From IMG/VR virus record IMGVR_UViG_2693429728_000013: a stretch of DNA of 7,008 nucleotides. One strand, written 5' to 3'. Position 1 is the stretch's first letter; the number at the start of each line of letters is the position of its first letter. Shown here one piece after another: positions 1 through 7,008 of this stretch. Position numbers and translations under genes: made by a program. The stretch is from a virus (taxonomy: Duplodnaviria; Heunggongvirae; Uroviricota; Caudoviricetes). The notes below the pieces were generated by a model. It was not told the DNA's origin. It saw nothing but the letters and a program-made list of their open reading frames with translations, and did not search any database.

Positions 1-224
1 GCGATTACGGTAACGACTGGCAGACGCTGGAGCTGGTGTTCACCGCCGGCAGTGCCACGGTTACTCCGAAACTGAATGGAGTGGAAGGTTCGGCATTCCA
101 GGCTATAAAAGACAGTCTGACACTGGGACTGAATGCGCTGACGCTGACGGATATTACAAAAAATGCAGCGTATGGCGTTGAGATAGAAAGTCTGGTGCTG
201 GAGATAAATGCACCGGCAGCATAA
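1..224 (+). CDS. 3' end of an upstream ORF (5' part outside window); unidentified phage late-region protein, C-terminus ...LVLEINAPAA
   Basis: Frame is open from position 3 to the TAA at 222-224 (translation begins DYGNDWQTLELVFTAGSATV...). Composition is not Q-antiterminator-like (no Cys-rich zinc motif, not basic). Product not recognised. Confidence 0.4.
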   Translation, partial: DYGNDWQTLELVFTAGSATVTPKLNGVEGSAFQAIKDSLTLGLNALTLTDITKNAAYGVEIESLVLEINAPAA

Positions 225-516: not shown

Positions 517-723
517 ATGGAAAAAATCACAACGGGTGTGTCATACACCACGTCAGCGGTGGGGACGGGATACTGGTTACTGCAGCTGCTGGACAAAGTC
601 TCTCCGTCCCAGTGGGTGGCAATAGGTGTACTGGGGAGTCTGCTGTTTGGCCTGCTGACGTATCTGACTAACCTGTATTTCAAAATCAGGGAGGACCGCC
701 GTAAGACGGCGCGGGGAGACTAA
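517..723 (+). CDS. S: Holin S, class II / pinholin family (phage 21 S21 / Stx-phage 933W type)
   Basis: 68-aa [71 protein letters not shown]: two hydrophobic helices and a charged C-terminal tail, closely resembling pinholin S21 as recalled. GGAGA 10 nt upstream of the ATG. Lies upstream of a SAR endolysin, the usual pinholin partner. Confidence 0.85.
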
Positions 724-727
724 AGCG

Positions 728-1705
728 ATGAAGAAAAAATACGAACTGGTTGTTAAAGAGATAAATAATTACCCGGATAAGATTGCTGTTACTGTGGCAC
801 TTGAAATTGGCGGGCATCCGTCGTTGTTGTTGCCACATGTGGCGATTAGTCTTGACCGTACTGAAGGTGCCACGCTGGAGTTCTACGAAGCTGAGGCGAA
901 AAAACAGGCGAAGCAGTTTTTCATGGATATTGTTGCCGGGTTATGCGAAGGGGATGAACCGTCACCGGAAAAGCGCCCCGTAATTTTAGATGCGCAGGAT
1001 GTATTGATAACCTACAAAGGAAAGCTACCGGGAAGAATTACTTGTTCTCTGAAGATGCCGCCGTCAACACTGCGGTCAGAAAAAGATGATGTTGAATCGC
1101 GTATTGAAAAACTGGAGTGCTATATCGCTGAATTGAAAAAAAGCACCCCAACAAAAAATGAGGTGCTTGCAGCAGACGAAATGAAAGAAGCTATTCCTGA
1201 TCGCGCGGCGAATCTAAGCTGCGCTTCATGGTTGAAAGAGCATCTTCAGCAGCCTGAAAAAAAACGCCGCGATGAGCAGTTTGCTGCGTTTTACGATTAT
1301 TGCCGGAAAGTGATGAGCAGAAATCTCGCAGAGTGTTTCAGTATTCATAATGATAATTTCAGTGACCTGGAATGGGAGTGTAACCGGCCATCCTTTGTTG
1401 TATCCGGTGATGCTGGGAAAATAACCATCTCAGAAAATGGAAAAGTAACACCGCCATCGCACCAGCATAGTGAGGAGCTCATTGAATTTGCCATTGATTA
1501 CCTGAAGAACAATAAAAAGCAGGGGCTGATGAAGTGCATTGGTCGTTGCATGGGATATCTGCAGATAGCTGCTGAGATTGAAGCGCTGGCCAGTGGTGCG
1601 GACAAGGATGCAGTTGTGCGGGAGGCTCTTCTTCGTGATTTTGATAATCCGCCCTTTAAAAAAAGTGCCGGCTTACTGGTTTCATCCAGGACTGACTTAT
1701 CTTAA
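728..1705 (+). CDS. Hypothetical protein, 325 aa, function unknown, embedded between holin and endolysin
   Basis: Uninterrupted 978-nt ORF. ATG lies 4 nt after the S stop (TAA 721-723) with GGGGAG at 713-718, so it is translationally coupled to S. No transmembrane segment, signal peptide or recognisable catalytic motif by eye; several Cys including a C-x3-C (KCIGRC); charged coiled-coil-like stretch (ESRIEKLECYIAELKK). Looks somewhat more AT-rich than flanking S and R by eye (not computed). Confidence 0.75.
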   Translation: MKKKYELVVKEINNYPDKIAVTVALEIGGHPSLLLPHVAISLDRTEGATLEFYEAEAKKQAKQFFMDIVAGLCEGDEPSPEKRPVILDAQDVLITYKGKLPGRITCSLKMPPSTLRSEKDDVESRIEKLECYIAELKKSTPTKNEVLAADEMKEAIPDRAANLSCASWLKEHLQQPEKKRRDEQFAAFYDYCRKVMSRNLAECFSIHNDNFSDLEWECNRPSFVVSGDAGKITISENGKVTPPSHQHSEELIEFAIDYLKNNKKQGLMKCIGRCMGYLQIAAEIEALASGADKDAVVREALLRDFDNPPFKKSAGLLVSSRTDLS

Positions 1706-1760
1706 AGGACGTATATAAGCTGGCTCGTTATCTGTTGCCGATAAATCCTGATAAATATCC

Positions 1761-2294
1761 ATGAACACCAAAATCAAATACGGCCTGTCGGCTGCTGTTC
1801 TGGCGCTGATTGCCGCTGGTGCGCCTGCGCCTGACATTCTCGACCAGTTTCTGGATGAAAAGGAAGGTAACCACACCACGGCATACCGTGATGGTGCGGG
1901 GATCTGGACCATCTGCCGTGGTGCCATCATGGTGGATGGTAAACCTGTTGTTCCAGGCATGAAGTTGTCGAAGGCAAAATGCGCTCAGGTTAACGCCATT
2001 GAGCGTAATAAGGCGCTGGCATGGGTGGAGAAAAACATCAAAGTGCCATTGACCGAACCACAGAAAGCGGGGATTGCGTCATTCTGTCCGTACAACATTG
2101 GCCCCGGTAAGTGTTTCCCGTCGACGTTTTATAAACGAATTAATGCAGGCGATCGCAGGGGGGCGTGTGAGGCGATTCGCTGGTGGATTAAGGACGGTGG
2201 CAGAGACTGCCGTATTCGCTCAAACAACTGTTACGGTCAGGTATCCCGTCGCGACCAGGAGAGTGCGCTGGCGTGCTGGGGAATTGACAGATAA
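1761..2294 (+). CDS. R: SAR endolysin R (T4-lysozyme-like, GH24 family), 933W/Stx-phage type
   Basis: 177-aa ORF. N-terminal Gly/Ala-rich signal-anchor-release helix (YGLSAAVLALIAAGAPAP) followed by the catalytic triad spacing E-x8-D-x5-T (EGNHTTAYRDGAGIWT), as in T4 lysozyme E11/D20/T26. No obvious Shine-Dalgarno upstream. Confidence 0.9.
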   Translation: MNTKIKYGLSAAVLALIAAGAPAPDILDQFLDEKEGNHTTAYRDGAGIWTICRGAIMVDGKPVVPGMKLSKAKCAQVNAIERNKALAWVEKNIKVPLTEPQKAGIASFCPYNIGPGKCFPSTFYKRINAGDRRGACEAIRWWIKDGGRDCRIRSNNCYGQVSRRDQESALACWGIDR

Positions 2295-2384
2295 GCAGAA
2301 TATTTTGCTGAAAAATGCGGTTTGCTCGCACGGACGGATAACACGAAATCCTGCGAACTGACAAAAACTAAGTGAATAAAAGTA

Positions 2385-2423
2385 AAAACCCCGTTTGTTG
2401 GCTGCAAGCGGGGTTTTGTGTTT
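2385..2423 (+). terminator. Rho-independent terminator between R and Rz
   Basis: Stem AAAACCCCG (2385-2393) / CGGGGTTTT (2409-2417), extendable through TTTG/CAAG inner pairs, followed by TTTTGTGTTT. Confidence 0.55.
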
Positions 2424-2453
2424 CCTGACTCTGGAAAAGTCAAAGGAGAAAGT

Positions 2454-2591
2454 GTGTTTGATTTTAGCAAACTGATTCGGGAGATTCGAGTGATGGCTGA
2501 AAAATTATCCACCTGGAAGTTCATTCTTATCTGGCTGGTGTTTGTGATTATGGCCTCCGGTTATTTCATCGGTCAGATACGCTGGTGGTGA
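2454..2591 (+). CDS. Possible small membrane protein (45 aa), GTG start, translationally coupled to Rz
   Basis: GTG at 2454 preceded by AAAGGAG (2442-2448, 5-nt spacer). Translation MFDFSKLIREIRVMAEKLSTWKFILIWLVFVIMASGYFIGQIRWW has one predicted TM helix. TGA at 2589-2591 lies 1 nt before the Rz ATG at 2593. Below the ORF-track length cutoff; not recognised as a known family. Confidence 0.3.
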   Translation: MFDFSKLIREIRVMAEKLSTWKFILIWLVFVIMASGYFIGQIRWW

Positions 2592-2592
2592 A

Positions 2593-3060
2593 ATGAACCG
2601 CGTACTGTGCGTGGTCATCATTGCCCTGCTGGTGGCCTGTGGTGCGCTTAGTCTGGGGCTGAATCATTACCGTGATAACGCCATAACCTACAAAGAGCAG
2701 CGCGATAAAAAAGTCAGTGAGCTGGAGCAGGCAAATGCAACCATTACTGATATGCAGCAGCGCCAGCGTGATGTTGCTGCACTTGATGCCAGATACTCGA
2801 GGGAATTAGCCGATGCGAGAGCTGAAAATGAAACTCTTCGCGCTGACGTTGCCGCTGGTCGTAAGCGCCTGCGGATCAACGCCACCTGTCCAGGCTCCGT
2901 GCGTGAAGCCCCCACCACCTCCGGCGTGGATAATGCAACCGGCCCCCAACTGGCAGACACCGTTACACGGGATTATTTCACCCTCAGAGAGCGGCTGATG
3001 ACGATGCACAAGCAACTGGAAGGGGCACAGGACTATATCCGCACTCAGTGCCTGAAATAA
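2593..3060 (+). CDS. Rz: Rz i-spanin (inner-membrane spanin subunit)
   Basis: 155-aa ORF with N-terminal TM helix and NHYRDNAITYK...DVAALDA...DYFTLRERL motifs closely matching lambda Rz as recalled; position downstream of R. Confidence 0.9.
   Translation: MNRVLCVVIIALLVACGALSLGLNHYRDNAITYKEQRDKKVSELEQANATITDMQQRQRDVAALDARYSRELADARAENETLRADVAAGRKRLRINATCPGSVREAPTTSGVDNATGPQLADTVTRDYFTLRERLMTMHKQLEGAQDYIRTQCLK
2813..2998 (+). CDS. Rz1: Rz1 o-spanin (outer-membrane lipoprotein spanin subunit), embedded in the +1 frame of Rz
   Basis: 61-aa ORF entirely inside Rz: MRELKMKLFALTLPLVVSACGS (lipobox VSAC) followed by a Pro-rich segment VKPPPPPAWIMQPAPNWQTP, as in lambda Rz1. Confidence 0.85.
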   Translation: MRELKMKLFALTLPLVVSACGSTPPVQAPCVKPPPPPAWIMQPAPNWQTPLHGIISPSESG

Positions 3061-3684
3061 GTTTTGTTGATGCGCCGTATCGTCGCTGTATTCCCTCATT
3101 AACAGAGACCGCAGCCCGACAGGGAGACTCCTCTGCGCGAGTGTGCGGGGATAATCAAAAACGATACACACTGGGGTTTACCGCGTTAACGGAGCGCGGC
3201 GTTGTCCCCTCATAGTCGCCTGTCCGGTGCGATGGTGGAAGAAGCCGGATGTTTATCACTATTAATTGATGACACAGAAATGGATTCATTGAATTTCAGC
3301 ACGTTTTTGTATTCGTGTTATTGAACATCTGTTTATTTTACTTTTAACATATTGATAATAAAAAGAGCTGTAAATCTTTAGATGAGTCGATTTTGTCCGG
3401 GGAAGTTCAAATGGATTTTATGCTGACGGTTTCTGGTGTGGTTATCCTGTCCATTGCTTATACTGCAGATAAATATGGCTGCCATTTGTTATCACGTATT
3501 GGCGCTTATTGTTCGTTGATGCTGATTTTCTCGTCGCTTTTTTTTTGAGTAAGTTATATTAATTATAACAAATAATTTTCTGTGTTATTTTTTCAGGCTA
3601 TCCCGTCAGAGGGGAAGCCTGTACTGCCGGGGAGCGAATGGAAAACTGATGTGTCCGGTAACTGCGTGTTCTGTGAACACCATG

Positions 3685-3870
3685 TTACTTAATTATGTAA
3701 TTCATACCCGAACTCTCTGTTGACAGCCTTCTTCTGCAGGCTTCAATAACCCACGCTGAAAAGTTTCCTGAACCTTTCAGATCAAGAGCGATGTTAATTT
3801 GTTCAATCATCTGGTTTGGAAATCGGATGTTGCGGGTTGTTGTTCTGCGGGTTCTGTTCTTTGATGACAT
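3685..3870 (-). CDS. Small ribbon-helix-helix-like protein (YlcI/YnfO, DUF3950-like), 61 aa
   Basis: Only minus-strand ORF in the spacer: MSSKNRTRRTTTRNIRFPNQMIEQINIALDLKGSGNFSAWVIEACRRRL... Basic N-terminus then a beta-strand/helix pattern typical of Arc/MetJ/CopG folds. Resembles the small DLP12 protein YlcI, which I recall lying just upstream of the Nu1 homologue; family assignment is from memory. Confidence 0.5.
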   Translation of the reverse strand: MSSKNRTRRTTTRNIRFPNQMIEQINIALDLKGSGNFSAWVIEACRRRLSTESSGMNYIIK

Positions 3871-4029
3871 AATGTTTCCCCATATTCAGTGTTGCTGATT
3901 TGTATTATCTGAAGTTGCTTTTACGTTAATTTGACGCAGATCAATTAATACGATACCTGCGTCATAATTGATTATTTGACGTGGTTTGATGGCGTAGATG
4001 CACGTTGTGACATGTAGATGATAATTATT

Positions 4030-4258
4030 ATCATTTTGCGGGTCCTTTCCGGCGATCCGACAGGTTACGGGGCGGCGACCTCGCGGGTTTTCGCTATTTA
4101 TGAAAATTTTCCGGTTTAAGGCGTTTCCGTTCTTCTTCGCCGTAACCTAATGTTTTTATTTAAAACACCCCCTGAAAAGAAAGGAAACGACAGGTGCTGA
4201 AAACGGGCTTTTTGGCCTCTGTCGTTTCCTTTCTCTGTTTTTGTCCGTGGAATGAACA
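4030..4258. other. cos: cos site: cosQ (about 4040-4068), cosN 12-nt cohesive end GGGCGGCGACCT (4070-4081), cosB with terminase/IHF binding sites (4082 to about 4250)
   Basis: GGGCGGCGACCT present exactly at 4070-4081, followed by CGCGGGTTTTCGCTATTTATGAAAATTTTCCGGTTTAAGG..., which matches the lambda left end as recalled. Upstream GGTCCTTTCCGG..GATCCGACAGGTTACG matches the lambda right end. Confidence 0.85.
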
Positions 4259-4804
4259 ATGGAAGTCAACAAAAAGCAGCTGGCTGACATTTTCGGTGCG
4301 AGTATCCGTACCATTCAGAACTGGCAGGAACAGGGAATGCCCGTTCTGCGAGGCGGTGGCAAGGGTAATGAGGTGCTTTATGACTCTGCCGCCGTCATAA
4401 AATGGTATGCCGAAAGGGATGCTGAAATTGAGAACGAAAAGCTGCGCCGGGAAGTTGAAGAACTGCGGCAGGCCAGCGAGACAGATCTCCAGCCAGGGAC
4501 TATTGAGTACGAACGCCATCGACTTACGCGTGCGCAGGCCGACGCACAGGAGCTGAAAAATGCCAGAGACTCCGCTGAAGTGGTGGAAACCGCATTCTGT
4601 ACTTTCGTGCTGTCGCGGATCGCAGGTGAAATTGCCAGTATTCTCGACGGGATCCCCCTGTCGGTGCAGCGGCGTTTTCCGGAACTGGAAAACCGACATG
4701 TTGATTTCCTGAAACGGGATATCATCAAAGCCATGAACAAAGCAGCCGCGCTGGATGAACTGATACCGGGGTTGCTGAGTGAATATATCGAACAGTCAGG
4801 TTAA
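4259..4804 (+). CDS. Nu1: Terminase small subunit Nu1
   Basis: 181-aa ORF MEVNKKQLADIFGASIRTIQNWQEQGMPVLRGGGKGNEVLYDSAAVIKWYAERDAEIENEKL..., essentially identical to lambda gpNu1 as recalled (N-terminal winged-HTH DNA-binding region). Immediately downstream of cosB. Confidence 0.95.
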   Translation: MEVNKKQLADIFGASIRTIQNWQEQGMPVLRGGGKGNEVLYDSAAVIKWYAERDAEIENEKLRREVEELRQASETDLQPGTIEYERHRLTRAQADAQELKNARDSAEVVETAFCTFVLSRIAGEIASILDGIPLSVQRRFPELENRHVDFLKRDIIKAMNKAAALDELIPGLLSEYIEQSG

Positions 4805-5560
4805 CAGGCTGCGGCATTTTGTCCGCGCCGGGCTTCGCTCACTGTTCAGGCCGGAGCCACAGACCGCCGTTGAATGGGCGGATGCCAATTACTATCTCCC
4901 GAAAGAATCCGCATACCAGGAAGGGCGCTGGGAAACACTGCCCTTTCAGCGGGCCATCATGAATGCGATGGGCAGCGACTACATCCGTGAGGTGAATGTG
5001 GTGAAGTCTGCCCGTGTCGGTTATTCCAAAATGCTGCTGGGTGTTTATGCCTACTTTATAGAGCATAAGCAGCGCAACACCCTTCTCTGGTTGCCGACGG
5101 ATGGTGATGCCGAGAACTTTATGAAAACCCACGTTGAGCCGACCATCCGCGATATTCCGTCGCTGCTGGCGCTGGCTCCGTGGTATGGCAAAAAGCACCG
5201 GGATAACACGCTCACTATGAAGCGTTTTTCCAATGGTCGTGGCTTCTGGTGCCTGGGCGGTAAAGCGGCAAAAAACTACCGTGAAAAGTCGGTGGATGTG
5301 GCGGGTTATGATGAACTTGCTGCCTTTGATGAGGATATTGAACAGGAAGGCTCTCCGACGTTCCTGGGTGACAAGCGTATTGAAGGCTCGGTCTGGCCAA
5401 AGTCCATCCGTGGCTCCACGCCCAAAGTGAGAGGCACCTGCCAGATTGAGCGTGCAGCCAGTGAATCCCCGCATTTTATGCGTTTTCATGTTGCCTGTCC
5501 GCACTGCGGGGAGGAGCAGTATCTTAAATTTGGCGATAAAGAGACGTCGTTTGGCCTCAA
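4580..5560. repeat. Tandem direct repeat, copy 1 (981 bp; Nu1 3' part plus A 5' part)
   Basis: Sequence from GTGGTGGAAACCGCATTCTG... through ...GTCGTTTGGCCTCAA recurs at an offset of exactly 981 bp. About six single-base differences between copies (e.g. CATCCGTGAG vs CGTCCGCGAG, CGTGTCGG vs CGTGTTGG, TACTTTATA vs TACTTCATA, CCTTCTCTGG vs CCTTATCTGG). Confidence 0.9.
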
Positions 5561-5693
5561 GTGGTGGAAACCGCATTCTGTACTTTCGTGCTGTCGCGGA
5601 TCGCAGGTGAAATTGCCAGTATTCTCGACGGGATCCCCCTGTCGGTGCAGCGGCGTTTTCCGGAACTGGAAAACCGACATGTTGATTTCCTGA
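4779..5693 (+). pseudogene. A: Terminase large subunit A, first copy, interrupted by the duplication junction at about 5560/5561
   Basis: GTG start overlapping the Nu1 3' end as in lambda. First ~264 codons read as gpA (MNISNSQVNRLRHF...KSARVGYSK...GDKETSFGLKW), then the frame runs into the duplicated Nu1 sequence out of frame (WKPHSVLSCCRG...) and stops at 5693. Confidence 0.7.
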
Positions 5694-5785
5694 AACGGGA
5701 TATCATCAAAGCCATGAACAAAGCAGCCGCGCTGGATGAACTGATACCGGGGTTGCTGAGTGAATATATCGAACAGTCAGGTTAA
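5561..5785 (+). pseudogene. Duplicated C-terminal fragment of Nu1 (about 74 codons, lacks the N-terminal DNA-binding part)
   Basis: Identical to Nu1 residues VETAFCTFVLSRIAGEIASILDG...EYIEQSG; same reading frame as Nu1 (offset 981 = 3 x 327); no native start or RBS. Confidence 0.7.
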
Positions 5786-6541
5786 CAGGCTGCGGCATTT
5801 TGTCCGCGCCGGGCTTCGCTCACTGTTCAGGCCGGAGCCACAGACCGCCGTTGAATGGGCGGATGCCAATTACTATCTCCCGAAAGAATCCGCATACCAG
5901 GAAGGGCGCTGGGAAACACTGCCCTTTCAGCGGGCCATCATGAATGCGATGGGCAGTGACTACGTCCGCGAGGTGAATGTGGTGAAGTCTGCCCGTGTTG
6001 GTTATTCCAAAATGCTGCTGGGTGTTTATGCCTACTTCATAGAGCATAAGCAGCGCAACACCCTTATCTGGTTGCCGACGGATGGTGATGCCGAGAACTT
6101 TATGAAAACCCACGTTGAGCCGACCATCCGCGATATTCCGTCGCTGCTGGCGCTGGCTCCGTGGTATGGCAAAAAGCACCGGGATAACACGCTCACTATG
6201 AAGCGTTTTTCCAATGGTCGTGGCTTCTGGTGCCTGGGCGGTAAAGCGGCAAAAAACTACCGTGAAAAGTCGGTGGATGTGGCGGGTTATGATGAACTTG
6301 CTGCCTTTGATGAGGATATTGAACAGGAAGGCTCTCCGACGTTCCTGGGTGACAAGCGTATTGAAGGCTCGGTCTGGCCAAAGTCCATCCGTGGCTCCAC
6401 GCCCAAAGTGAGAGGCACCTGCCAGATTGAGCGTGCAGCCAGTGAATCCCCGCATTTTATGCGTTTTCATGTTGCCTGTCCGCACTGCGGGGAGGAGCAG
6501 TATCTTAAATTTGGCGATAAAGAGACGTCGTTTGGCCTCAA
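5561..6541. repeat. Tandem direct repeat, copy 2 (981 bp)
   Basis: Same as copy 1 at offset +981. Junction has microhomology: CTGAAGTGG in Nu1 versus CTCAAATGG in A. Confidence 0.9.
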
Positions 6542-7008
6542 ATGGACGCCGGATGATCCCTCCAGCGTGTTTTATCTCTGCGAACATAATGCCTGCGTCA
6601 TCCGCCAGCAGGAACTGGACTTCACTGATGCCCGTTATATCTGCGAAAAGACCGGGATCTGGACCCGTGATGGCATTCTCTGGTTTTCGTCATCCGGTGA
6701 AGAGATTGAGCCACCTGACAGTGTGACCTTTCACATCTGGACAGCGTACAGCCCGTTCACCACCTGGGTGCAGATTGTCAAAGACTGGATGAAAACGAAA
6801 GGGGATACGGGAAAACGTAAAACCTTCGTAAACACCACGCTCGGTGAGACGTGGGAGGCGAAAATTGGCGAACGTCCGGATGCTGAAGTGATGGCAGAGC
6901 GGAAAGAGCATTATTCAGCGCCCGTTCCTGACCGTGTGGCTTACCTGACCGCCGGTATCGACTCCCAGCTGGACCGCTACGAAATGCGCGTATGGGGATG
7001 GGGGCCGG
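5760..7008 (+). CDS. A: Terminase large subunit A, second copy, apparently intact at the 5' end; 3' end beyond window
   Basis: GTG start at 5760 in the same context as 4779. Frame stays open to the window end and reads as gpA through ...GLKWTPDDPSSVFYLCEHNACVIRQQELDFTDARYICEKTGIWTRDGILWFSSSGEEIEPP...AGIDSQLDRYEMRVWGWGP, matching lambda gpA as recalled. Confidence 0.9.
   Translation, partial: MNISNSQVNRLRHFVRAGLRSLFRPEPQTAVEWADANYYLPKESAYQEGRWETLPFQRAIMNAMGSDYVREVNVVKSARVGYSKMLLGVYAYFIEHKQRNTLIWLPTDGDAENFMKTHVEPTIRDIPSLLALAPWYGKKHRDNTLTMKRFSNGRGFWCLGGKAAKNYREKSVDVAGYDELAAFDEDIEQEGSPTFLGDKRIEGSVWPKSIRGSTPKVRGTCQIERAASESPHFMRFHVACPHCGEEQYLKFGDKETSFGLKWTPDDPSSVFYLCEHNACVIRQQELDFTDARYICEKTGIWTRDGILWFSSSGEEIEPPDSVTFHIWTAYSPFTTWVQIVKDWMKTKGDTGKRKTFVNTTLGETWEAKIGERPDAEVMAERKEHYSAPVPDRVAYLTAGIDSQLDRYEMRVWGWGP

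Follow-up and report, generated by a model that had tools for sequence, protein, structure and literature searches.

A doubled segment across the Nu1/A terminase boundary of a lambdoid Escherichia coli prophage joins two natural alleles at one novel joint

Introduction

In bacteriophage lambda, the cohesive-end site cosN lies upstream of Nu1, which is followed by A, and the product of A combines a GpA ATPase domain with a nuclease domain. Tandem duplications and hybrid genomes that arise by illegitimate or unequal recombination occur in lambdoid phages and in the prophages of pathogenic E. coli; as a rule, resident prophages recombine homologously, without a duplication being left behind. The motifs of the lambda large terminase subunit (TerL) have been described as a Walker A sequence, KSA-R79-VGYS, and a Walker B sequence, VAGYD, followed by the catalytic residue E179 (PMC6379665).

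Here, we analyzed a stretch of 7008 nt (hereafter, the window), which is the whole of contig CYFF01000051.1 of the draft assembly GCA_001285365.1 and represents the packaging module (cos-Nu1-A) of a lambdoid prophage from E. coli. The module agrees with the lambda terminase operon in its cosN sequence GGGCGGCGACCT upstream of Nu1, in a Nu1 that matches PF07471 over its full length and in an A with the GpA ATPase and nuclease domains; the Walker A motif KSARVGYS at residues 76-83 and the motif VAGYD-E at residues 174-179 are exactly as described for lambda TerL (PMC6379665). The 85 nt that flank the junction analyzed below are 97.6% identical to nu1 of lambda (J02459). However, whereas lambda and 5,426 complete E. 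coli genomes carry one Nu1 followed by one A, a block across the Nu1/A overlap is present twice in this window.

Results

Layout of the window

The features of the window are summarized in Table 1. Both ends of the contig lie inside multi-copy prophage genes. The contig starts within a multi-copy esterase gene, and several related draft contigs begin within ~100 nt of that point; at the right end, comparison with five relatives revealed no divergence point, the next difference being located 126 nt further on. The cosN sequence, which we take to be identical to the left end of lambda, was found 189 nt upstream of Nu1, and the inverted repeat in cosB presumably corresponds to the R2 and R1 Nu1-binding elements of lambda.

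Table 1. Positions and supporting evidence for the features of the window
Feature	Position	Strand	Basis or remark
Prophage SASA-family carbohydrate esterase, 3' end	1..224	+	Alignment to annotated CDS, 2014C-3061 and OkiPb01680 (1374/1545-3224)
Lysis cassette	517..3060	+	ORFs and Pfam PF04971, PF07041, PF00959, PF03245; context, outside the duplication
Class II holin	517-723	+	Lysis cassette
325-aa DUF1327/YdfR-family protein	728-1705	+	Lysis cassette
Lysozyme	1761-2294	+	Lysis cassette
Rz-type lysis protein	2593-3060	+	Lysis cassette
cosN cohesive-end sequence GGGCGGCGACCT	4070..4081	+	Single exact match in the window, 0.03 expected by chance
Inverted repeat in cosB, 26-nt arms, 85% complementary	4178..4234	.	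Repeat search
Nu1, small terminase subunit, intact, 181 aa	4259..4804	+	PF07471 profile match
Repeat copy 1: Nu1 codons 107-181 and A codons 1-261, allele 'a' (I69, L103)	4578..5560	+	Offset comparison
Truncated large terminase A', 304 aa	4779..5693	+	ORF list; PF05876
110-nt patch with all six copy differences	4976..5085	+	Counterpart in copy 2 at 5957-6066
Repeat copy 2: Nu1 codons 107-181 and A codons 1-261, allele 'b' (V69, I103)	5559..6541	+	Offset comparison
Junction, A sequence ...GGCCTCAA joined to Nu1 sequence GTGGTGGAAACC...	5559..5564	+	
Nu1 C-terminal fragment ORF, residues 108-181, nominal GTG start	5561..5785	+	ORF list; PF07471 109-164 only
Second A gene, open for 416 codons to the contig end	5760..7008	+	PF05876 at 47-285, PF20454 at 322-416

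A 981-nt tandem repeat with six differences

We compared the window base by base with itself and found a direct head-to-tail repeat with a period of 981 and no spacer, the copies being contiguous with one novel joint between them. Each copy consists of 983 nt, including a 2-nt 'AA' overlap that the two share. The identity between the copies is 99.4%, which is far beyond chance, and outside the repeat span the identity at an offset of 981 drops to background. A repeat of this period exceeds the maximum that Tandem Repeats Finder handles (500), and the program accordingly returned no hit; the offset comparison was used in its place. The earlier note had placed a tandem duplication at 4580-6541 with a junction at 5560/5561, which proved correct to within 2 nt.

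Exactly six mismatches were observed between copy 1 and copy 2 (4976 C/T, 4983 A/G, 4988 T/C, 5018 C/T, 5057 T/C and 5085 C/A), of which two are nonsynonymous (I69V and L103I) and four synonymous; this agrees with the diverged copies, with about six differences and I/V and L/I exchanges in A, that had been noted before. The 110-nt patch that holds them might be read as a later gene-conversion tract, and this version is counted under the favored explanation below.

Genes of the doubled segment

The first Nu1 matches the entire PF07471 (Phage_Nu1) profile (positions 1-164 of 164, E = 3.9e-101, 336 bits against a cut-off of 30), and its counterpart in relatives is annotated as a DNA-packaging protein. 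It is located directly downstream of cos, and its stop codon (4802-4804) overlaps the A gene, which starts at 4779. The A' product that begins there comprises native residues 1-262 followed by 42 out-of-frame codons that run through Nu1 sequence to a TGA at 5691-5693. A' matches the PF05876 ATPase domain at residues 47-273, and a Pfam profile search found no match to the nuclease domain PF20454 in it. As the native sequence ends at residue 262, the lid subdomain (residues 327-364), the nuclease domain and the C-terminus are missing; lacking the lid and nuclease domains, A' is a fragment and not a functional member of the gpA/TerL family. Both A copies carry KSARVGYS at 76-83 and VAGYDE at 174-179, and the first of these motifs, which the earlier note had named as a gpA ATP-binding motif kept in the truncated copy, is indeed the Walker A motif of lambda TerL (PMC6379665).

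No Shine-Dalgarno sequence was evident upstream of the Nu1 fragment ORF. The second A has its GTG start 66 nt after the stop codon of A'; it covers the ATPase domain completely and the nuclease domain over its first third (PF20454 profile positions 2-100 of 294). The Z1322HEC0001 allele, which is identical to the second A as far as the contig reaches, is a full 641-aa gene. Thus, the previously proposed order of an intact Nu1, a truncated A, a Nu1 fragment and a second, open A holds, except that the native part of A' comprises 262 residues and not ~264.

Parental alleles of the two copies

Each copy, together with its flank, was identical to a different natural prophage allele. Positions 4207-5560 (copy 1 and the left flank) showed no difference from the 1.80-Mb prophage of MB06102, and positions 5561-7008 (copy 2 and the right flank) showed none in 1448 nt from the prophage of Z1322HEC0001 and one from the 3.31-Mb allele of MB06102. 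MB06102 therefore carries both allele types in separate prophages, which indicates that one strain can hold both. Both SNP haplotypes are widespread in A genes of the usual single-copy kind: 197 records match the copy-2 patch in the band of at least 99% identity, and the Leu103 variant of copy 1 has a full-length 100% match in at least nine records. Judged from these identities, the two copies are two natural alleles and not diverged daughters of one duplication, and the structure is an end-to-start join of two prophage packaging modules. These results bear out the view that this is not a fresh slippage duplication. They also support the two-parent origin in the proposal that two related prophage terminase regions were joined at a short microhomology or merged artefactually; the artefact alternative stays in play because the window is the whole of a 7-kb contig from a draft assembly.

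A second unique allele combination was found in the same contig, in which a 2014C-3061-type cos region is combined with an MB06102-type A allele across 677 shared nt. Among complete genomes, no match above 99.5% was obtained for positions 4100-5560. The contig accordingly consists of three haplotype segments, with markers split by shared stretches of 677, 475, 397 and 942 nt. In related short-read assemblies, contigs end precisely at polymorphic sites of this module, at the equivalents of window positions 4165 and 4978.

Sequence of the joint

The parental sequences at the joint are AAATGG (A) and AAGTGG (Nu1), that is, AA and TGG around one mismatch, with an exact microhomology of 2 nt and five of six bases in register. 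Among 200,000 random breakpoint pairs, an exact microhomology of 2 nt had a chance of P = 0.16 and five of six bases in register a chance of P = 0.025. The latter agreement, found in 2.5% of random pairs, fits a polymerase- or recombination-mediated join.

We further compared the repeat borders with nine related alleles and found no difference at either border. On the Nu1 side, the nearest allele difference lies 22-28 nt upstream and occurs in one allele only (the 3.31-Mb allele of MB06102); for Z1322HEC0001, the closest upstream difference is ~180 nt away. On the A side, the nearest differences lie 13 nt upstream and 16 nt downstream, in another allele class than the one on the Nu1 side, and no allele varies between alignment columns 1449 and 1476, around this border.

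Occurrence of the joint

Beyond its source contig, the joint was absent from 5,426 complete E. coli genomes, from phage and plasmid records, and from GTDB representatives, IMG/VR and JGI metagenomes, and no protein spanning it was found among 5.8 billion protein clusters. It is a singleton, known from one contig of one draft assembly, and the collections searched gave no evidence of selection, transmission or a second occurrence. All close relatives carry one Nu1 and one 641-aa A. An exact look-up of the 304-aa fusion ORF, with Met or Val as the first residue, returned no record; this negative is weak because the index is incomplete for that protein and misses the listed gene of the source contig itself. 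In the assembly collection, 643 blocks list the 74-aa Nu1 fragment ORF, and no duplication was present in the ten assemblies examined, where Nu1 is normally placed but fragmented, mostly with other prophage genes also split, which resembles indel errors. Poultry strains in which a piece of A adjoins a piece of Nu1 were considered as carriers of the same duplication; this candidate was rejected, as they carry a Nu1-A deletion remnant with different breakpoints.

Discussion

The doubled segment reflects either an assembly error or a single, unremarkable rearrangement, and not new biology. Between the two, we lean toward a real, strain-specific illegitimate recombination, and infer that the joint was present in the sequenced DNA. 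Two natural alleles of the same Nu1-3'/A-5' segment would then have been joined end to start, the left allele contributing Nu1 through A codon 261/262 and the right allele everything from Nu1 codon 107/108 on through A. A single RecA-independent illegitimate recombination or template switch, mediated by the AA.TGG microhomology, might have produced this arrangement from two lambdoid prophage genomes that were co-resident, lay in tandem or replicated together; alternatively, a simple duplication could have arisen first and then acquired a short gene-conversion patch from a second prophage. The product would be an intact Nu1, a dead-end A' fragment, a Nu1 remnant with little or no translation, and an A that looks full-length and has its own start. 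Such a joint would probably be a neutral-to-harmful, recombinationally unstable lesion without a function of its own.

The repeat and the junction are exact in the contig, which counts in favor of a real joint. In a de Bruijn graph, every join must be backed by k-mers, and scaffolders or gap closers either require ~10-15 nt of overlap or insert Ns, of which this contig has none. To our knowledge, none of these tools can invent a joint with a 2-nt overlap unless reads contain it; on such general grounds, an assembler would have needed reads that contain the joint. Moreover, the repeat borders match no divergence point among the alleles examined and are not branch points of the best-matching alleles, although this is not decisive for the source strain, whose own alleles may differ from the nine compared. 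Finally, the path through the contig takes each allele a single time and every shared block two times, as the simplest route around a true loop would.

We nevertheless take seriously the possibility, which we hold to be somewhat short of even, that the contig is an assembly or scaffolding chimera of two or three near-identical prophage modules, each with a normal Nu1 and A. The end of one allele might have been stitched to the start of another by the assembler, during scaffolding or gap closing, or through a family of chimeric reads, in which case the 981-bp 'duplication' would reflect two overlapping allelic copies and have no counterpart in the cell. This would suit a whole short draft contig that ends on both sides within repeated prophage genes, a joint that is a singleton in every collection searched, and close relatives that all have the single-copy arrangement. 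The copies correspond exactly to two alleles from different prophages, both of which are found in MB06102, and a further haplotype switch occurs in the same contig across the 677-nt shared stretch; markers spaced 397-942 nt apart are poorly phased by short reads, and it is in the cos-Nu1-A module, at polymorphic sites, that short-read assemblies of related strains break up. The SNPs specific to the 3.31-Mb allele of MB06102 lie just 22-28 nt upstream of the Nu1-side border. Two further points count against a real joint: a 2-nt exact microhomology is not unusual by chance (P = 0.16), and sequences that share kilobases of homology should recombine homologously far more often than illegitimately.

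A same-molecule tandem duplication by replication slippage in one prophage, with copies that later diverged by point mutation, is very improbable: it would account for the head-to-tail geometry without a spacer and the short microhomology, but all six differences lie within 110 of the 983 nt and reproduce the natural alleles of the 1.80-Mb MB06102 prophage and Z1322HEC0001 (no differences over more than 1.3 kb each), whereas independent mutations would scatter and be mostly private, and a 981-nt direct repeat is normally lost by homologous recombination long before 0.6% divergence. Divergence by point mutation after one duplication was therefore rejected, and the allele identities, as far as sequence comparison goes, effectively refute this reading.

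The interference with packaging that the earlier note suggested for the truncated A is speculative. Were the joint real and stably maintained, the products of the doubled segment could be imagined to act as a terminase poison or packaging-interference module, which we regard as extremely unlikely. A' residues 1-262 would keep the N-terminal Nu1-binding region and the Walker A and B motifs without the lid and nuclease, and A', with or without the Nu1 fragment, might titrate the almost identical Nu1 and A subunits of co-resident or superinfecting lambdoid phages. The singleton status of the joint argues against such a role.

The genes concerned are those of a textbook lambda-type terminase, with thousands of annotated copies that share at least 99% identity, and the finding carries little biological weight. 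If real, the favored recombination event would illustrate, on a small scale, how co-resident lambdoid prophages can be joined without homology, and the joint would probably be lost quickly through recombination between its 981-nt repeats. A caution also follows for strains with several lambdoid prophages, in which short draft contigs of the cos-Nu1-A module can chain segments of different alleles. 'Truncated terminase' or 'Nu1 fragment' genes in this module, of which the 74-aa Nu1 fragment ORF is one example, need read support before they are interpreted.

The two leading explanations both have counterparts among known systems. Lambdoid recombination products share with this locus a head-to-tail repeat, a very short microhomology and related parent modules able to co-reside. 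Recombination among resident prophages differs in that the joint here connects non-homologous positions 981 nt apart. Mis-joined prophage contigs likewise resemble the present one, which consists of multi-copy prophage genes throughout, combines three haplotype segments, with shared stretches between them that exceed the length of a read, and contains a singleton joint. However, a typical graph mis-join reuses existing k-mers, whereas the joint here is new sequence with a 2-nt overlap and lies off the branch points examined.

A related rearrangement of the same two genes is the Nu1-A deletion remnant of the three poultry strains (H1-H3), which likewise has a non-homologous joint between Nu1 and A. 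This remnant belongs to a defective lambdoid prophage beside a tRNA-Arg gene and fimZ, and is annotated by PGAP as a Nu1 'missing C-terminus' that adjoins a gpA 'missing N-terminus'. The deletion joint is present in three complete genomes, whereas the duplication joint is present in none. The remnant reflects the opposite event, namely, a deletion that joins Nu1-5' to A-3', with breakpoints at approximately window positions 4682 and 5491, whereas in the present contig the 5' part of A runs into the 3' part of Nu1.

Structure of the tandem repeat

The region examined here belongs to a lambda-like prophage and forms its packaging module. A repeat search revealed a direct, head-to-tail repeat (period 981 nt) across the boundary of the small (Nu1) and large (A) terminase genes. 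The two copies share a 2-nt AA at the joint and are 99.4% identical over the 981-nt repeat, with six mismatches (4976 C/T, 4983 A/G, 4988 T/C, 5018 C/T, 5057 T/C and 5085 C/A, copy 1/copy 2) and perfect agreement otherwise; on both flanks, identity at an offset of 981 drops to background. Tandem Repeats Finder reported no repeat in the window, because its maximum period was 500. Two of the six differences are nonsynonymous (I69V and L103I) and four synonymous. The earlier note had placed the duplication at 4580-6541 with a junction at 5560/5561 and about six differing positions, some changing the A protein, all of which the base-by-base offset comparison bears out; its order of parts and truncated A also stand, and only a trivial detail differs (262 native residues, rather than about 264).

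Features of the packaging module and the tandem repeat
Feature	Position	Length	Description
GGGCGGCGACCT	4070-4081		exact match to the lambda cohesive-end sequence (cosN)
Inverted repeat	4178-4234		repeat search; taken to match the cosB R2/R1 elements
Nu1	4259-4804	181 aa	full-length PF07471 match
Repeat copy 1	4578-5560	983 nt	each base compared with the base 981 positions downstream
A' (truncated first A)	GTG 4779 to TGA 5691-5693		native residues 1-262, then 42 codons of wrong-frame Nu1 sequence
Repeat copy 2	5559-6541	983 nt	each base compared with the base 981 positions downstream
Nu1 remnant	5561-5785		Nu1 residues 108-181
Second A	from GTG 5760		open for 416 codons, up to the contig end

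The truncated frame A' keeps KSARVGYS at 76-83 and VAGYD-E at 174-179. The former, which the earlier note had described as the gpA ATP-binding region (KSARVGYSK), is indeed the Walker A of lambda TerL, and the latter is likewise a TerL motif (PMC6379665). Lambda TerL has its lid subdomain at residues 327-364, and its nuclease domain lies in the C-terminal half (PMC6379665); A' therefore lacks both. In the second A the ATPase domain is complete, and the nuclease domain is represented by its first third, where the contig ends. No ribosome-binding site was evident upstream of the Nu1 remnant.

Two other genes of the window were noted. On the minus strand at 3685-3870, the lysis cassette and cos are separated by a 61-aa DUF3950 (YlcI/YnfO family) gene, as in relatives; it is ordinary lambdoid context. 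Between the holin and lysozyme genes, an intact 325-aa ORF (728-1705) matches DUF1327/YdfR (PF07041) over its first 100 residues alone, its C-terminal extension of 225 residues having no Pfam match; the assembly collection indexes this exact protein in 42 blocks, and PGAP annotates the counterpart in the closest complete genomes only as a 336-nt pseudogene ('YdfR family, missing C-terminus'), with no annotation for the remainder.

Two natural alleles in one contig

We aligned both window halves with nine related single-copy loci. Positions 4207-5560, which take in Nu1 in full together with the truncated A, and with them copy 1, showed no differences from the prophage at 1.80 Mb of strain MB06102. 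Positions 5561-7008, which hold copy 2 and the remaining part of A, were identical over 1448 nt to strains Z1322HEC0001 and Z1323HEC0009 and differed at one site from another MB06102 prophage, located at 3.31 Mb. A match to the copy-2 haplotype in the ≥99% identity band is present in 197 complete-genome records, and at least nine records match the less common copy-1 haplotype (Leu103) at 100% over its full length. Since both haplotypes occur in single-copy natural loci, the six differences are not post-duplication mutations; by this sequence comparison, they mark two pre-existing alleles able to co-reside in one chromosome.

Window positions 1 to approximately 4883 are of the type of strains 2014C-3061 and OkiPb01680, which differs from the window at 12-13 sites in 4884-5547. 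The left part thus changes haplotype, from that type (cos markers 4140-4206) to the MB06102 1.80-Mb type (first marker 4884), across 677 nt common to both; this change is either natural mosaicism or mis-phasing.

Occurrence in other genomes

The three closest complete genomes (99.1% identity) match the window as two pieces spanning approximately 6030 nt, and therefore carry a single copy. Apart from genes fragmented by nanopore-type errors, every draft or complete relative sharing the lysis cassette has a single 181-aa Nu1 and a single 641-aa A. None of 5,426 complete E. coli genomes, 50,697 phage records and 72,556 plasmids matched a 160-nt junction query in one piece; neither a 40-mer nor a 24-mer, each centred on the junction, was found in GTDB species representatives, IMG/VR or JGI metagenomes. 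Among 5.8 billion protein clusters, none covered both halves of the junction-spanning peptide, the best matches being frameshifted Nu1 genes or ordinary A fragments.

Several other loci were noted. As a called gene, the 74-aa Nu1 C-terminal ORF is indexed in 643 assembly-collection blocks; the ten chromosome-scale assemblies shown all have Nu1 in pieces, and most also have broken A, portal and capsid genes, which looks like indel error of long-read assemblies, not biology. A 48,499-bp Paenibacillus sonchi 'plasmid' (NZ_CP068597.1; lambda-type nu1 match, 97.6% over 85 nt) has almost exactly the size of the phage lambda genome and seems to be lambda control DNA submitted under a plasmid label. 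Three poultry E. coli strains (e.g. NZ_CM142767.1, locus positions 3682-5312) carry a defective lambdoid prophage remnant adjoining a tRNA-Arg gene and fimZ, with iss just upstream, in which Nu1 without its C-terminus is fused directly to gpA without its N-terminus. We rejected these strains as a second duplication; their joint is a deletion in the same gene pair, with other breakpoints (approximately window-equivalents 4682 and 5491).

Origin of the joint

We lean towards the joint being real in the sequenced DNA. It comprises the 2-nt exact overlap, one mismatch and then TGG; five of six bases in register occur in 2.5% of random breakpoint pairs, although a 2-nt exact overlap occurs in 16%. 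Neither k-mer graph assemblers nor scaffolders or gap closers that rely on overlaps are known to make such a joint unless reads contain it. Precisely this arrangement would result if A codon 261/262 of one lambdoid genome had been joined to Nu1 codon 107/108 of another in a single non-homologous exchange or template switch guided by microhomology. As parents, tandem lysogens are conceivable, as are prophages resident in one chromosome or phages replicating together; locally, the outcome would look no different from a near-unit-length deletion between a pair of tandem prophages. Alternatively, a simple duplication may have come first, and a second prophage may then have donated a conversion tract of at least 110 nt.

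An assembly or library artefact is nevertheless quite possible. A look-up of the exact 325-aa DUF1327 protein leads to contig CYFF01000051.1 of draft assembly GCA_001285365.1; at 7008 bp this contig has the window's length, and the window is therefore all of it. The contig is short and bounded by multi-copy prophage genes, ending on the left inside the 3' end of a SASA-family esterase gene and on the right inside A. It is composed of three haplotype segments separated by allele-shared stretches of 677, 475, 397 and 942 nt, which short reads phase poorly; its left combination of cos type and A allele (4100-5560) is absent from complete genomes, the best match being 99.5%, and the joint is a singleton in the collections searched. 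Short-read contigs of related strains stop at polymorphic sites, L018 at window-equivalent 4978 and L020 and L021 at 4165, each exactly one base before a site polymorphic among lambdoid alleles; several near-identical cos-Nu1-A modules therefore appear to be present in those genomes, and assemblers normally stop at such sites in multi-module genomes. However, the joint is new sequence in a contig with no Ns, the repeat borders match no divergence point among the alleles compared, and each allele is used once and each shared block twice, as in a true loop. Simple slippage followed by divergence is ruled out, because both copies match pre-existing alleles; the earlier note, which had argued against fresh slippage and for two parents, was correct in its observation and sound in its interpretation.

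If the joint is real, the repeats should readily recombine to a single mosaic A gene, and such ready loss fits its being a singleton. Nu1 is intact and the second A retains its own start codon and upstream sequence; the A' stop, 66 nt upstream, replaces the Nu1-frame overlap, and therefore expression of full-length A may be altered. Judging from its sequence, A' cannot be a working ATPase or nuclease; that A' or the Nu1 remnant might bind partner subunits and interfere with packaging is speculation.

Relation to known systems

The joint did not recur in the collections searched, and neither a new system nor any function was indicated. As members of the lambda Nu1 and gpA families the genes are ordinary, although the first A copy, being truncated, does not have the full set of gpA domains. 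The type of event is well known, whether it is an illegitimate joint that yields a tandem repeat or a faulty join among repeated prophage modules.
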